A stretch of 63,516 nt of DNA, filler included, from Globobulimina sp. (taxonomy: Eukaryota): NCBI GenBank assembly GCA_003354225.1. It is 43 parts of 43 records of this genome, joined end to end, with 100 filler letters (N's around TTAATTAATTAA, not from the genome) between each part and the next. Parts side by side here need not be neighbours in the genome. Positions count along the whole stretch, not along the records: positions 13,325 to 14,704 come from PIVH01017621.1; 42 more parts are not named here. One strand, 5' to 3'. A program made the translations under genes and the position numbers. The notes under the pieces are model-generated. The model searched no databases, was not told the origin of the DNA, and saw only the letters and a program-made list of their open reading frames with translations. This document shows positions 1,482 to 60,505 of the stretch, piece after piece (position 1 is the stretch's first letter; each line of letters begins with the position of its first letter).

Positions 1482-2428
1482 GCTAGAGCAAACAAACCAA
1501 CGGTAACCTTCATGTAAAGGGATGCCAAGCTGCCACCATGATGAAGGGTTTCACCTGCTTTTTGAAAAAGGACCTGCCGCAGAGCCCCTCGCACCACCTC
1601 CATCGGGCTGAACAGCATACGCGTCACTAACAAATAGGAACCAGCGATCGTAATTTCGAAATAATATGTCAGCAGCAAAACGGGTAGGCCCGACGATAAA
1701 GCATTAATGACGTTTTGAGATGCGGAATACATGGGGAAATCCCGATAGTATTTTGCCAAATGCCACATGCGAGCCCAACTGATATGCAGCCACTTATCTC
1801 TAACTGCACGAATTACCACCTGCACTAAATTCAGGCTGGCCAGTAGATTACCCAGGATTACAGCACAGATAAGAACAGCTGGTCCTCCTATCGAATAGCC
1901 AAGCAATAGCTTTATGCCATTAGTCGATAAACTTCGAACGACTTGAGAAGTTGAAGTGCTTTTAAACTCCTTGACACGTACACACCATGCCTGACATGCT
2001 TGGTTGAGGCCACCGACAAGAATAGCCACAACCAGCAGTGATAGCATCCAGGTATTTGGGGCTTTTATGAGATCCTGAAGTAAATCAGGCGCCAGAAGGC
2101 AAGCGGCCAAACAGCAAGCAGTTATTAAAGCAGTTGATGTACATGAAAGTGCGAAAAGGTTAATAGCCTCCTCTTTTTCTTTGGGCAGCATGATAGCCTG
2201 GGAATAATCCAGAGTTACCCCAGCGGCAATTACGGTAAAAACTGCGTAAAATGAGCCGAACACACCAAAATCGGAAGGGGAAAAAAGGCGACTGACGATT
2301 GGAGCAACGGCAAAACCAATGATCTGGGCTACGGCCGTACCTGACATCACGACAAGAACATTCTTGGCGAAGGAAGATTTCATCAACAAAGTTAGAGTAT
2401 GCTTTAAATTTAAATTAGATGTCATCAT
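1482..2428 (-). CDS. Bacterial polysaccharide/O-antigen flippase (Wzx, MOP superfamily), 3' truncated
   Basis: N-terminus KNVLVVMSGTAVAQIIGFAVAPIVSRLFSPSDFG, many TM segments, YRDFPMYS motif; intronless, higher GC. Confidence 0.88.
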
Positions 2429-2429
2429 A

Positions 2430-2735
2430 ACGAATTTTTACGGGGCATATCTGAGGTAACCCAGTAAAGGGCCAATCAAGAGAAAAAATGTTTTGAGTTA
2501 GCTTTTCATATTTTGGGATATCAAAATAGTAATCTGCAATACTGTCGCCACTCATCCCAACTCCAAAACACATAAGATTTTTCAGAAAACCTTTTTCCGA
2601 AAACCTTTTTGTTATGAGTTGAGGAATTTTTTCGTGATCATTTACTTGATATGCTTCAACATATGAATCACCCCATATAGCAATTTTTTTCCTATCATCT
2701 TTTGTAATATCTACAATTTCATTAATGCCAAAAGA
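2430..2735 (-). pseudogene. Fragment of SGNH/GDSL-hydrolase-like bacterial protein
   Basis: Manual translation KKIAIWGDSYVEAYQV...FGVGMSGDS (blocks I and II); no intact start, truncated before the flippase. Confidence 0.55.
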
Positions 2736-13053: not shown

Positions 13054-13482
13054 AAAGTTTGATTTAATTAAACATGTTAAAGTACTTGTAGTGAGTAATA
13101 AATAAAATTTATGTGTAAAATTTCTTGCATTACACTAGCGTTTATAACAGATTGCAAGACTTTAGTTTTTTACAAATGACGAATTACTCTTGAAATGTCC
13201 TTCTGTGTGTGAGTGTATGTGTGTNNNNNNNNNNNNNNNNNNNNNNNNNNNNNNNNNNNNNNNNNNNNTTAATTAATTAANNNNNNNNNNNNNNNNNNNN
13301 NNNNNNNNNNNNNNNNNNNNNNNNCTTGTGTTAGGTCTTGCATTATGATGTCTGGATGTGGTGGTTGTTCATTCATATTGTTTGTTTGGGAATTATTATT
13401 GTTGATTTGAAGGTCGTTGAGTGAGTTATATTCATCAATCTCCATTTTTTCACTAAGCTGGCTGTGATAGTGGTTGGTGTGG

Positions 13483-14703
13483 TTAGTGTTGTTTTCGATA
13501 TTTAGGTTTGGATGATTTTGATGGTATTTTTTTATTTTGTCTAAATGTGTGGTTTAATGGTTTGCTGATGAGGTTGATTTGTATACCTAGTTTTGTGGTG
13601 ATAATTTGTTCAAGGAATTTGATAAATTGGTCTCGCTCTTTTTCAGTTTTCCAGTGTTTTTTTGGGAGCATAATGCCATCAAAGCATAGTACTGCAATTT
13701 GTTTATTTTTCTGAGTTTTGAAAGTTGCATTGACTGCTTGGATTATTATTTGTAGTATGTGAGCTTCGATTCTTGTTAATAGGAGTGATAAAAATGCTCC
13801 TTCTGGTTGAGTATATTTTTTATGAGGGTTTTTTGGTTTATTTTGTGAGTATTTCCATGGTGCAGGGTAATATTTTTTTAATTTTTTGAAGATTTCTGGC
13901 ATTTCGTTTTTGTAGTTTTTTAAGTGTTGAGTGTGGAATTTGAGTTGTTTATATTGTCTGGTTCCTCCATTTGTGATGGAGTTATAAAGTTGTTTAAGAA
14001 TTGCTCTTGATTGTGGTGTAGGTTGCTGTTGACTAAGGTTTGATAAGATATTGTCACGATTATTTATGTATTCTTGAAGTGCTTTACAAGGGATATTATT
14101 TATTCGGCATATATGTTCTAATATTACTGGGTGGCAATTTACTATGTCAATGTCATAATATAAGTTGTCTGCGATTGTACCTCGTATTTTTTTTGAGAAA
14201 TTTTGAAGGCCAAGAGTGTTAGTTTTTTGTGTAAGTTTATTTTTTGTTGGTTGTTTGAATAGCCTTTCTTTTTTACATTTATCTCGTCTGCTATGTTTGT
14301 ATTTTGTTGGTATTCTGTGATGTATATCTGCACTTTCATGGTATGTGAGTAACTGTTTTTTGAGGATTTTTATTTGTTTGGGAGTTTTGTCAAGAATTTG
14401 GCTTAAAGCCTGATTCGGGATTTGGTGTATTTGTAGGAGGTTTTTTGTGTTATATATTTCAAGAAATTCTGTATATTGTTTGTAATGTTTGGTTCCATTT
14501 ATTGTGGGATTAATTAAGTGTTTTAGGTATTTTTTTGTGGGTTTTTTTGCTATATGGATTGTGGGTAGGTTTGTTTTTTGTTGTATTGGTGGAGTTGGTT
14601 TATATGTATATTCTGTATCGTTTATCGTGTCTGTTATTGGGCTATAATCTGGGATCCATTTTGTTTTGAGTTTTTTAAATTCCTGAAAGAAAGGGAGGTG
14701 AGA
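13483..14703 (-). CDS. TV-Pol family (PolA-like) viral/transposon polymerase domain, 5' truncated
   Basis: Manual translation is open from the contig end: LQNFSKKIRGTI, YYDIDIVNCHPVIL (motif A), KQLYNSITNGG (motif B), LSLLLTRIEAHIL, VLCFDGIM (motif C). The ORF track begins only at the first Met (13902). Confidence 0.8.
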   Translation of the reverse strand, partial: SHLPFFQEFKKLKTKWIPDYSPITDTINDTEYTYKPTPPIQQKTNLPTIHIAKKPTKKYLKHLINPTINGTKHYKQYTEFLEIYNTKNLLQIHQIPNQALSQILDKTPKQIKILKKQLLTYHESADIHHRIPTKYKHSRRDKCKKERLFKQPTKNKLTQKTNTLGLQNFSKKIRGTIADNLYYDIDIVNCHPVILEHICRINNIPCKALQEYINNRDNILSNLSQQQPTPQSRAILKQLYNSITNGGTRQYKQLKFHTQHLKNYKNEMPEIFKKLKKYYPAPWKYSQNKPKNPHKKYTQPEGAFLSLLLTRIEAHILQIIIQAVNATFKTQKNKQIAVLCFDGIMLPKKHWKTEKERDQFIKFLEQIITTKLGIQINLISKPLNHTFRQNKKIPSKSSKPKYRKQH

Positions 14704-15049
14704 ANNNNNNNNNNNNNNNNNNNNNNNNNNNNNNNNNNNNNNNNNNNNTTAATTAATTAANNNNNNNNNNNNNNNNNNNNNNNNNNNNNNNNNNNNNNNN
14801 NNNNTAGCATATTACATTGCTGGGTGCAACTCCTAGGCAAGAGAGAGTATCCTTATTTTTTTCATTTTATCAAATGTATCCATAATAATATAATAAATAT
14901 TTTGCTTGCGAGTTATATCAGAGATTGATCTGGATCTGACACGAAATTAATCAGAGATTGAGTCAGTCGAAGCTCTTTCACCAACTCTCGCTTGGGACGA
15001 AACTCTAAAAACATGCTGGAAACTCTCGCTGTAGACAGACAGCCTTAAC

Positions 15050-25164: not shown

Positions 25165-26322
25165 CCCCTCAGCTATAAGGCCTATAATGGAAACCAAAAT
25201 GATGATACAACCCATATTCCAAACTGGAATGAGCTTCGATCTTTAATAAAAAAAGAAGATTTTATATACATAGCAGATTGTAAGTTGTGCAGTAATAAAA
25301 ATTTAGCATACATTGATGAAAACAACGGTTATTTCATTACCATTGTTCCCAAATACCACAAAGATGCAAAGGATTTTGTGGAATATATAAAAACCAATGA
25401 AGTTAAATGGGAAGATGCTTTTGAAGTCCCGCACTCTCGGAAAAAAAGTGAGATTAATGCATATAAAACTTATGATGCCGGCAAAAACAGAAAAGGCTAT
25501 CGCGTAATTTGGGTTCATTCCAGTAGCAAAGCGGAGCAAGACAAAAATAAAAGACTGAAAAAAATTGATAAGGCTCAAAAAGCTCTAAAAAAAATGGTAC
25601 CAAAACTCAATGCCTATCATTTGAAAACGCAGAAAGATATTAAGGCTGCAGTTGATAAGACATGTAAAAATGTTAGTGATTTAATAGATGTAAAAATTAA
25701 TTTGGGAAGGAAGCGGGTCTATAAAAAAATTCCGGCGTCGAAATGGCAACCGGGCGAACCAAGATATAAATACAAATGGTCATTCACTTACGGTCTTGAG
25801 TGGTCATTAAATAAGCAAAACGCTGAAGCGATATCGAAGACAGATGGTTTGTACCCACTAATCACAAACAATCATTCGTTACCTGCCGCTGATATTGTAA
25901 TGATGTATAAGCGTCAGTCATATCTTGAAAAACGGATGTACACAAAGAAAACAATATTGGAAGTCGCGCCAGTTTTTCTTAAGAAAGAAAGACGAATTGA
26001 AGCCGTATTACTTCTATATTTTTTTGCACTCATGGTAGTCTCGCTGATCGAAAGAAATATAAGATTAAACATGGAAAAGGAGAAGCTCGAAAAGCTTCCG
26101 ATTTTACCCCAGGGAATGAATACAAAAAAACCGACATGGAACAATATCCGGTATTTTTATCGGAATGTACACCTATCGCTAATCCTCCAGGACAGGATAC
26201 CAATACAGGCAGATGTTCAGGGATTTAGTGACCTGCATCAAAAAGTATGTGAGCTTATGGAAGTGCCAATCTCATTGTATAGAAAATTACAAGACCAATG
26301 GTGGCTGTTTGGAGTTACATAA
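25165..26322 (+). CDS. IS1634-family DDE transposase, 5' truncated
   Basis: YNGNQND, IADCKL, RVIWVHSS, DGLYPLITN, YKRQSYLEKR, PVFLKKERRIEA. Confidence 0.9.
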   Translation, partial: PLSYKAYNGNQNDDTTHIPNWNELRSLIKKEDFIYIADCKLCSNKNLAYIDENNGYFITIVPKYHKDAKDFVEYIKTNEVKWEDAFEVPHSRKKSEINAYKTYDAGKNRKGYRVIWVHSSSKAEQDKNKRLKKIDKAQKALKKMVPKLNAYHLKTQKDIKAAVDKTCKNVSDLIDVKINLGRKRVYKKIPASKWQPGEPRYKYKWSFTYGLEWSLNKQNAEAISKTDGLYPLITNNHSLPAADIVMMYKRQSYLEKRMYTKKTILEVAPVFLKKERRIEAVLLLYFFALMVVSLIERNIRLNMEKEKLEKLPILPQGMNTKKPTWNNIRYFYRNVHLSLILQDRIPIQADVQGFSDLHQKVCELMEVPISLYRKLQDQWWLFGVT

Positions 26323-26644: not shown

Positions 26645-28024
26645 ACAAAATTTTCTCTAGAAGTGGAAGACATGTTGATATCTCTGATATGCTAAAGGAT
26701 TATCAAAGTTTATATTCAAAAATTGTGAATAACAGAATAAGATTCTTGTCAGGCAATATACCAAATACAGAGAAGATGTCATGTTTTTCTGATAAAGCAA
26801 GCAGGAAGGAACTACAACATATCCAGAAAGAATTCATTATTGCACCTGCTGACAAAGCAAGCAACAATTTCATTTTCATATGTAAAAAATACTACTTGGA
26901 AATTATGTGCAAAGAACTTGGCGTGAGTATGGACTCCAATGGGCTATGTACTGTAACTGGCAATGATGTTTACAAACCATGTATTATTGATGAAACTATA
27001 CTTATTGACAAACATAAATCCCTCACGGTACAAACTGGACTGATTAAATTTGACAGCGAAGATGAAAACTTGCCAGTTATATTTGCGACACCTAAACTGC
27101 ATAAAAACCCATATAAATTTCGCTTTATCGCAGGGGCGCGTAATTCATCAACTAAACCAATGTCAAAAATATTGCATAGAATTTTAATCCATTTTCAACA
27201 ACATTTTGAAAGATATTGTATCACAGTTAGTAAAAGAAAAGGATTTAACTGTTACTGGTCAATCAAAGGCAGTCTGGAGGCACATAGACGTATAGAACAT
27301 AAAATACAATCAAAAAATTTACATAGCATTTGTACTGCGGATTTTAGTTCATTATATACAATGTTCCCACATGAAATTATTAAAAAACAACTTTTCAAAC
27401 TAATAGATATGCTATTTGGACATGCGAACAAAAGATATGTGGTTATTACATACAATAATGTTTATTATGCTGACCAAGCTAAAGGTAAATATATAGCATG
27501 CTTGGATAAAGATGAGACCAAAATTTTGATAGACAATATTATAGATGAAACATATGTTAAGTTTGCTGGTTTTATCTTCAAACAAATATGTGGCATTCCA
27601 ATGGGTGGTAATGCTAGTCCTCTAATTGCAGATCTTGTATTGAGTATGTTGGAATATGAGTTTCTCACCAATATTAATAACATAAATACTGCTAGAACAA
27701 TGAGTCACACAATGCGATACATAGATGACATACTTTCCATAAACTGTGAAAAATTTTTAGAATATGCAAAATTAATATACCCAAGCTGTCTACCACTTGA
27801 AAACACAGGAAAATCTAAATATGAAAGTTGTTTTTTGGACATTATGGTCAACATATGTCCGGGTAAACACAGAATTGCAGTCTACAATAAAACAGATGAT
27901 TTTAACTTTTTTGTGGTCAGATATGGCTTTGCCCAGAGTAACGTACATACAGCAATGGGATACAAAGTATTCTATACTCAACTAATTAGGATTGCCAGAA
28001 TTTGTAATAACTTTAATGATTTTG
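26645..28024 (+). mobile_element. Penelope-like retroelement reverse transcriptase, both ends truncated
   Basis: PADKASNN, PKLHKNPYKFRFI, ADFSSLYT, GIPMGGNASPLIADL, RYIDD, FLDI, YNKTDDFNF; intact frame. Confidence 0.9.
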
Positions 28025-59082: not shown

Positions 59083-59182
59083 NNNNNNNNNNNNNNNNNN
59101 NNNNNNNNNNNNNNNNNNNNNNNNNNTTAATTAATTAANNNNNNNNNNNNNNNNNNNNNNNNNNNNNNNNNNNNNNNNNNNN

Positions 59183-60505
<1,323 letters not shown>

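Follow-up and report, generated by a model that had tools for sequence, protein, structure and literature searches.

A TV-Pol replicase gene fragment of extreme strand asymmetry in a Globobulimina sp. assembly, probably from a virophage or polinton-like virus

Introduction

In the genome assembly of Globobulimina sp. (GCA_003354225.1), the contig PIVH01017621.1 carries on one strand a long open reading frame (ORF) that is cut by the contig edge and has a strongly skewed base composition, and the question arises what this frame encodes, to what kind of element it belongs, and whether it is a copy within the genome of the sequenced organism or derives from a virus sequenced along with it. The contig was analysed as positions 13325-14704 of a stretch of 63,516 nucleotides (the window), which consists of 43 contigs of 1378-1381 bp each, sorted by length, and 42 spacers (about 100 bases, N runs around TTAATTAATTAA). 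Because the window joins 43 unrelated contigs, neighbouring genes across the spacers are without meaning as synteny. A first-pass annotation had described the frame as a hidden gene for a TV-Pol (PolA-like) polymerase, probably from an endogenous virus or polinton-like element. According to the results described below, the contig is best explained as part of a replicase gene from a small eukaryotic double-stranded DNA virus or mobile element of the virophage or polinton-like virus (PLV) kind, with a probability of about 0.8.

The open reading frame and its contig

The contig and its two open frames are as follows.

13325..14704, no strand assigned: whole contig, 1380 bp, with a spacer on either side and an extreme strand asymmetry
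13483..14703, minus strand: 5'-truncated ORF with the predicted TV-Pol (family-A-like polymerase) domain, 406 codons followed by TAA (13483-13485)
13326..13553, minus strand: second open frame of 76 codons, extending to the contig end, carrying ..MEIDEYNSLND.. and probably continuing the same protein toward the missing helicase half
13483..13553, minus strand: overlap of both frames, with the frame break of the window copy inside it and a length-variant contig in the sequencing run X1

Translation of the minus strand over 13483-14703 gave 406 codons and then TAA, with the frame open at the contig edge; since the ORF is cut there, further N-terminal sequence exists. Methionine is found in the 406 residues only at residue 268 (position 13902) and residue 345, and because the first of these is residue 268, an ATG-based ORF track covers only the last third of the frame. 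When the contig was shuffled 1000 times, the longest run without a stop had a mean of 84 codons and a maximum of 197, so the observed frame did not arise by chance. The motifs YYDIDIVNCHP (14128-14160), KQLYNSITNGG (within 13963-14007) and VLCFDG (within 13666-13692) are all located on the minus strand and follow one another in this order along the frame, and the profile of the protein family described below matched the contig in a single piece (E 1.3e-96), with no sign of introns. The second frame is open from 13553 to the contig end, 158 nt beyond the stop codon of the first frame, and overlaps the latter over 13483-13553. The description in the first-pass annotation, namely a stop-free and intron-free frame, Met-free until 13902, with the three motifs in order and a second frame just downstream, was reproduced in each of these points.

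Predicted fold

A model of the 406 residues was built with AlphaFold2 using the family alignment (mean predicted local distance difference test, pLDDT, 77.6; predicted template modelling score, pTM, 0.77). The pLDDT was 90-98 over most of residues 170-390, and below 50 over residues 1-44, 127-140, 152-162 and 401-406. All fold comparisons rest on this model, but the part that aligned is the confident part. In a Foldseek search of PDB, ranks 1-50 were without exception family A DNA polymerases (Bst, Klenow, T7, Pol theta, and the apicoplast polymerase), and all of the 50 VIA-align rows were family A polymerases as well, with Z scores of 10.4-14.2 and 258-295 residues aligned over model residues 65-386; archaeo-eukaryotic primase (AEP) structures were absent from both the 50 Foldseek ranks and the 50 VIA-align rows. 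The top matches in BFVD were the Zamilon virophage DNA replication protein (E 1.3e-12), the Qinghai Lake virophage helicase/primase/polymerase, and proteins of Catovirus and Pyramimonas orientalis virus. The 406 codons are thus predicted to encode a TV-Pol domain, that is, a minimal polymerase of the family A type with thumb, palm and fingers. Residues 1-64 are predicted to be disordered and match nothing, and no exonuclease was recognised in the visible, edge-cut ORF.

Family features and conserved residues

According to the account of Iyer et al. (2008, PMC2579912), four modules characterise TV-Pol: an N-terminal thumb whose core is a pair of antiparallel helices, a beta-hairpin that contributes a conserved Arg, an RRM-like palm with two metal-binding Asp, and fingers that are inserted after the first palm strand and contain a conserved Asp and RxxxK; a fused nuclease (proof-reading) domain is lacking. 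Sputnik V13, with a D5 helicase at its C-terminus, is given there as a founding member. Each of these features was looked up in the model and in 81 aligned rows of the family, to which all conservation counts refer.

14314..14511, minus strand: N-terminal helical module, residues 65-130, aligning with the thumb side of family A polymerases (pLDDT 66-89)
14203..14277, minus strand: hairpin region, residues 143-167, ending in the invariant Q167, with low model confidence over 152-162
14128..14160, minus strand: YYDIDIVNCHP, first palm strand, with D184 (81/81 rows) and D186 (80/81)
13963..14007, minus strand: RAILKQLYNSITNGG, fingers helix with RxxxK, R233 (R in 60/81 rows) and K237 (81/81)
13666..13692, minus strand: VLCFDGIML, second palm hairpin, with D342 (79/81 rows)

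The palm was found with high model confidence (pLDDT 93-98), with D184 and D186 on the strand 182-187 and D342 on the hairpin 338-347; YYDIDIVNCHP and VLCFDGIML we take to be motifs A and C, assuming the usual correspondence to motifs A, B and C of Klenow. The fingers appear as a helical insert (residues 190-330) with D217 (D in 45 and E in 32 of the 81 rows) and the sequence R233-A-I-L-K237. The thumb was found with moderate confidence as the helices 97-104 and 108-130 ahead of the hairpin, where the structural alignments begin (at 65-77). In the neighbourhood of the hairpin, R174 is kept (80/81 rows) and R147 lies on the preceding strand; the identification of the hairpin column with the Arg that Iyer et al. 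call absolutely conserved is our own reading, made where the pLDDT of the model is below 50 (152-162), and the residues of the query in that column are considered below among the points against the assignment. In one other member of the family, P0095, Asn stands at the columns of R174 and D186, and this protein may be inactivated. The TV-Pol identity proposed in the first-pass annotation was borne out by the family A fold, by virophage replication proteins as the best viral structural matches, and by the retained catalytic Asp and RxxxK.

Sequence relatives and fused domains

Searches of Pfam gave only sub-threshold chance matches, and neither PHROGs nor PDB (by sequence) nor a tblastn search of a phage collection gave any match. 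A word-indexed search at lengths similar to that of the query returned two distant matches (29% and 26% identity) and found neither the query's own cluster nor the variants from the sequencing run. An exhaustive phmmer search was carried out on 1.84 billion cluster representatives, which stand for about 15 billion proteins, and it yielded 3130 proteins at E<=1e-3, of which 1091 were at E<=1e-10 (best E 2.2e-30). Identity to the query was 28-43% among the best 150 of the 3130 relatives. The matches span query residues of about 160-395, and in most relatives (720-1100 residues) the match lies near the N-terminus.

The region following the match was characterised in 56 longer relatives obtained from the word-indexed search. 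Forty-two of them carry PF19263 (DUF5906), PF08706 (D5_N) or PF05272 (VirE) at the C-terminal side; among the others, three carry PF02399, one a PolB domain, one PIF1-type helicase domains, and nine are without a Pfam record. The two exceptional fusions are P0023 (1506 aa), in which the domain is joined to the PolB domain, and P0028 (1553 aa), in which it is joined to PIF1-type superfamily 1 (SF1) helicase domains. The C-terminal part of the 81-member family profile matched D5-type primase-helicases of solved structure (6k9c, 1.6e-34; 8apl, poxvirus D5/E5, 4e-15), and its N-terminal part had no match among solved structures. The profile comparison that had been suggested for the frame therefore came out positive, with 3130 relatives, a family A fold, and D5-type superfamily 3 (SF3) helicase partners in 42/56.

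Genomic setting of the relatives

Relatives of the domain are encoded by 28 IMG/VR loci on contigs of 4-27 kb, the closest of them on contigs of 12-27 kb. The best locus, L001, encodes a Sputnik-type major capsid protein (MCP; PF21915, 1.6e-31; PF22031, 8.4e-33) 4.5 kb upstream of its TV-Pol-DUF5906 gene of 827 residues. By an iterated hidden Markov model search with the L001 capsid, a Sputnik-type MCP was found in 9/28 loci within the stored flanks. A PLV capsid module was identified in none of the 28; the 19 loci without a Sputnik-type MCP in the stored flanks may be of the PLV kind. At the second-best locus, L002, Pfam matched the replicase only, and because of this L002 may be a PLV with a capsid outside Pfam. 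The setting of the relatives on viral contigs of virophage size, nine of them with a Sputnik-type capsid, supports the earlier proposal of an uncharacterised virus or self-replicating element.

Two further features of these loci were noted: in L001, a gene for a D12-class N6-adenine DNA methyltransferase (L001:7868-8605; PF02086, E 2e-23) is situated between capsid gene and replicase, and tandem pairs of Sputnik-type major capsid ORFs are present in two virophage-like loci, L004:3459-6854 and L011:2452-5824.

Base composition and strand asymmetry

The coding strand of the ORF is composed of A 0.48, C 0.23, G 0.08 and T 0.21 (A+C 71%), and the plus strand of the whole contig of G 0.236, T 0.475, C 0.084 and A 0.205, corresponding to a GC skew of 0.47 and an AT skew of -0.40, values approached by none of the other 42 contigs; the A/C-skewed coding strand unlike the host genes, which had been noted beforehand, is therefore real. 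At two-fold degenerate sites, C/(C+T) in codons ending in a pyrimidine (NNY) was 0.51 and G/(A+G) in codons ending in a purine (NNR) was 0.06 in the TV-Pol gene, versus 0.31 and 0.37 for the pooled set of nine other window ORFs. Six related viral genes were examined, and five of them gave 0.10-0.25 for C/(C+T) and 0.10-0.33 for G/(A+G). The sixth is the following gene.

L027:7118-10036: TV-Pol gene of an IMG/VR locus with a virophage MCP

It has a milder asymmetry of the same type (C/(C+T) 0.57, G/(A+G) 0.23, four-fold G 0.08) and was the sole such case among the six, and the base make-up of the query as a whole was shared by none of the 28 related loci. The amino-acid make-up of the query is distorted (K 15%, G 2%, V 1%).

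Measured against the relatives, the coding strand is depleted in G and T in favour of A and C, which on its complement amounts to C-to-T and A-to-G changes, the two products of deamination. In animal mitochondrial DNA, such a bias of the heavy strand is typical of a strand that spends time single-stranded, and the skew of the query runs in the direction that prolonged single-stranded exposure of one strand would be expected to produce. On this interpretation, one strand could be left exposed by strand displacement in strictly one direction or by a genome stage that is single-stranded, and that strand would gather C-to-U and A-to-hypoxanthine deamination in the manner of the animal mitochondrial heavy strand. 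That the contig represents a novel lineage of TV-Pol elements whose replication keeps one strand single-stranded for long is considered unlikely.

Several other causes were considered. Transcription-coupled deamination acts on the non-template strand and would make the coding strand rich in T and G, contrary to the observation; bisulfite-like conversion, being limited to C-to-T changes, would not raise G; and hypermutation or decay similar to repeat-induced point mutation would be expected to leave stop codons, of which there are 0 in 406 codons. Selection at the level of translation, favouring C-ending NNY and A-ending NNR codons, could add to the bias at third positions but is insufficient, because G on the coding strand is low also at first (12.5%) and second (8.6%) codon positions, in addition to 3.4% at third positions.

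The resemblance of the skew (one strand G+T-rich, at synonymous sites too) to animal mitochondrial DNA, as generally known, also raises the possibility of an organellar or plasmid-like element, and genes for TV-Pol and D5 are described for the plastid genome of Nephroselmis in the account of Iyer et al. (2008, PMC2579912). Although the ORF otherwise avoids G, its three Trp codons are all TGG, with no TGA, which argues against a mitochondrial code (TGA as Trp), and the relatives are viral; an organellar or plasmid-like origin is regarded as highly improbable.

Variants in a public sequencing run

One public sequencing run, X1, contains 29% of the sampled words of the contig. From this run 22 contig pieces were obtained that together fall in all 30 bins of the contig, 5 at >=99%, 15 at 95-99% and 2 at 90-95% identity, and one piece of 938 nt extends 290 nt past position 14704. 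Since the pieces span 90-99% identity, the sample holds several diverged variants. Two other runs of the same sample, X2 and X3, did not cover the contig, which is not proof of absence, and no RNA run was listed as containing it.

Of 40 listed differences, 39 lie in the ORF, and these comprise 26 synonymous and 13 non-synonymous changes with no stop codon; 8 further differences lie outside this count. Random placement of the same base changes gave an expectation of 10.3 +/- 2.7 synonymous changes, and 26 was reached in 0/2000 simulations. The proportion of 26/39 therefore indicates purifying selection on the protein: in at least one sequenced sample the element occurs as several variants of 90-99% identity that have diverged under selection at the protein level. 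In one X1 variant a length change that is not a multiple of three lies within the overlap of the two frames, and in that copy the frames are related to each other in another way. This variant supports the continuation of the protein into the downstream frame, as had been suggested in the first-pass annotation, and implies that the window copy is either truly frameshifted or misassembled. The view of the second frame as a linker or the start of the helicase is based on this length variant.

These variants bear on where the element resides. In one explanation, to which we give nearly even odds, the contig is one copy of a multi-copy endogenous virophage or PLV family in the nuclear genome of the AT-rich eukaryote from which most of the window comes. 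The 22 pieces at 90-99% identity resemble a repeat family that fragments short-read assemblies, the window copy is frameshifted relative to the variant, and for PLVs in protist genomes a preprint reports integrations numbering tens to thousands (bioRxiv 10.64898/2026.06.19.733378). On the other side, no host sequence flanks the gene on the contig, the composition is unlike that of all 42 other contigs, and the synonymous excess fits a replicating population equally well as recently active copies. In another explanation, which is plausible at somewhat less than even odds, the contig comes from a free or episomal virus (virophage, PLV or helper system) that was co-sequenced and lies outside the genome of the organism. 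This accords with the two-fold-site values (0.51 and 0.06, versus 0.31 and 0.37 in the nine other ORFs), with variants under purifying selection, with the origin of all relatives from metagenomes and viral contigs, and with the foreign appearance (by eye) of some other window contigs relative to the main organism. Nothing speaks directly against a free virus, although virions would be less likely to include a frameshifted copy, which may itself be an assembly error.

Comparison with known systems

Among known systems, the replication proteins of Sputnik (V13) and Zamilon (Lavidaviridae) are close to the query in several respects: the polymerase fold appears to be the same in the model comparison (Zamilon V6BPG7, Foldseek E 1.3e-12, TM 0.56 on the query), the order of the conserved motifs is identical, and the C-terminal helicase and nearby Sputnik-type capsid genes are found also in the relatives of the query. 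They differ in that identity in the structural alignment is about 20%, the hairpin Arg is absent in the query, the helicase half is not seen on the query contig, and the query DNA is strand-skewed, unlike the 28 related loci. The TV-Pol-helicase of PLVs is a second close counterpart, and such Pol A-SF3 fusions ("TV-Pol") are presented in the preprint on PLVs as typical replication genes of PLVs and virophages that are often exchanged between groups (bioRxiv 10.64898/2026.06.19.733378).

CCPol of staphylococcal SCCmec (with Cch2) is described as a TV-Pol family member and an active family A polymerase that requires its two catalytic Asp, that primes de novo only with the small partner protein MP and that works with a helicase; the same article presents it as the only TV-Pol member with biochemistry (PMC7581432). 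CCPol differs from the query in that it is bacterial, its priming needs the separate MP, and its helicase is a separate gene; a sequence match between the two was not seen, though none was sought. With the cellular and phage polymerases of family A (Klenow, Bst, Taq, T7, Pol theta and the apicoplast polymerase), the query would share thumb, palm and fingers over about 260-295 residues (Z 10-14) as well as the acidic residues of motifs A and C and the fingers R/K, the correspondence to Klenow being presumed; identity is 9-15% in the VIA-align rows, and the query is about half the size, with no 3'-5' exonuclease domain seen. Fusions of an AEP primase with D5 (prim-pol type) take, in the description of Iyer et al. 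(2008, PMC2579912), the same place ahead of a D5-like helicase and the same presumed role; their fold is unrelated to that of the query.

Weighing of the assignment

Several results weigh against the contig being a replicase gene fragment of the virophage or PLV kind. Genes for a capsid, packaging or an integrase are not seen on the contig, nor are a host junction or the helicase half, and none of the other 42 contigs matched the family profile or a virophage MCP profile. The frame break of the window copy is 21 codons ahead of the stop of the first frame, and the second frame (13326-13553) did not align with the family profile (probability 0.1), which would be expected of a variable linker, yet is not proof of one. 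In a FastTree phylogeny of 87 domain sequences, the query, with its aberrant amino-acid make-up, was placed on a long branch in no supported clade. In the hairpin column, R is present in 78/81 rows where the query has L157, and the adjacent G of 75/81 rows is K156 in the query; because the hairpin Arg is replaced by Leu and the model is of low confidence there, catalytic competence is uncertain. Finally, 4/28 of the related loci come from giant-virus bins.

The last point leads to the explanation that the gene belongs to a giant virus (Nucleocytoviricota) and not to a small virophage or PLV. The structural matches to Catovirus and Pyramimonas orientalis virus proteins agree with it, as does the position of the query near L025 (from a giant-virus bin) in the tree, although on long branches; virophage, giant-virus-bin and other labels did not cluster in that tree. 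Giant-virus metagenome bins, however, often hold virophage or PLV contigs, virophage capsid genes are present in 9/28 loci, and the closest loci lie on contigs of 12-27 kb; a giant virus is judged very unlikely as the source. An origin from a transposon is a further possibility.

The frame break ahead of the expected helicase half, the lost hairpin G-R and the distorted amino-acid make-up (K 15%, G 2%, V 1%) would also be understandable if the gene were a decaying or catalytically dead relic. Set against this are the 406 stop-free codons versus at most 197 in shuffles, the ratio of 26 synonymous to 13 non-synonymous changes with no stop among the variants, and the apparent retention, judged from the alignment, of all metal- and nucleotide-binding residues, and a relic is considered distinctly unlikely. 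The replicase fragment of a virophage or PLV remains the preferred explanation of the contig.

Other contigs of the window

Pfam searches of 10 ORFs on other contigs indicated a sulfatase, a sulfotransferase and a weak reverse transcriptase, none of them specific to a lineage, and a sequence search with a G-alpha ORF gave nothing but generic eukaryotic G-alpha clusters. The following ORFs were noted.

26647-28023, plus strand: contig-filling ORF with a weak RVT_1 match (E 1.7e-4, below the Pfam cut-off), probably a retroelement of the main organism
1482-2437, minus strand: ORF of a multi-pass membrane protein, bacterial in appearance by eye
25165-26319, plus strand: transposase-like ORF, bacterial in appearance by eye, with no Pfam match
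59139-60505, plus strand: S-adenosylhomocysteine-hydrolase-like gene (by eye) in two frames with a gap of about 50 nt

With the two bacterial-looking ORFs, more than one organism may be represented in the assembly, and the split S-adenosylhomocysteine-hydrolase-like gene suggests short introns in the main organism.

Proposed function and significance

By analogy with the relatives, the full protein would consist of the TV-Pol domain followed by a D5-like SF3 helicase, here past the end of the contig and behind the frame break. The helicase half, as a hexamer, would open and unwind the DNA of the element, and the TV-Pol half would extend DNA chains and probably also start them by making primers, with D184/D186 and D342 holding the metals and R233/K237 holding the incoming nucleotide. 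Since CCPol, the only TV-Pol with biochemistry according to the article cited above, is an active polymerase, polymerase activity is a reasonable expectation; for primase activity the expectation is weaker, and the lack of the hairpin Arg makes it more doubtful.

Apart from its skew, the gene is an ordinary one for such elements and represents an isolated lineage in a known family, its closest counterparts being at most 43% identical among the best 150 relatives in a library of about 15 billion proteins. TV-Pol-helicase replicases are an established hallmark of virophages and PLVs, elements known to abound in protist genomes, and the main value of the gene is as a marker of the presence of such an element in the sample, whether integrated or infecting. 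A limited literature search found no account of such a strand bias in virophages or PLVs. Long single-strand exposure, if true, would be a replication mode undescribed for virophages or PLVs as far as that limited search extends, and the skew, if due to the mode of replication, would provide a sequence-only handle on how such elements copy their DNA.

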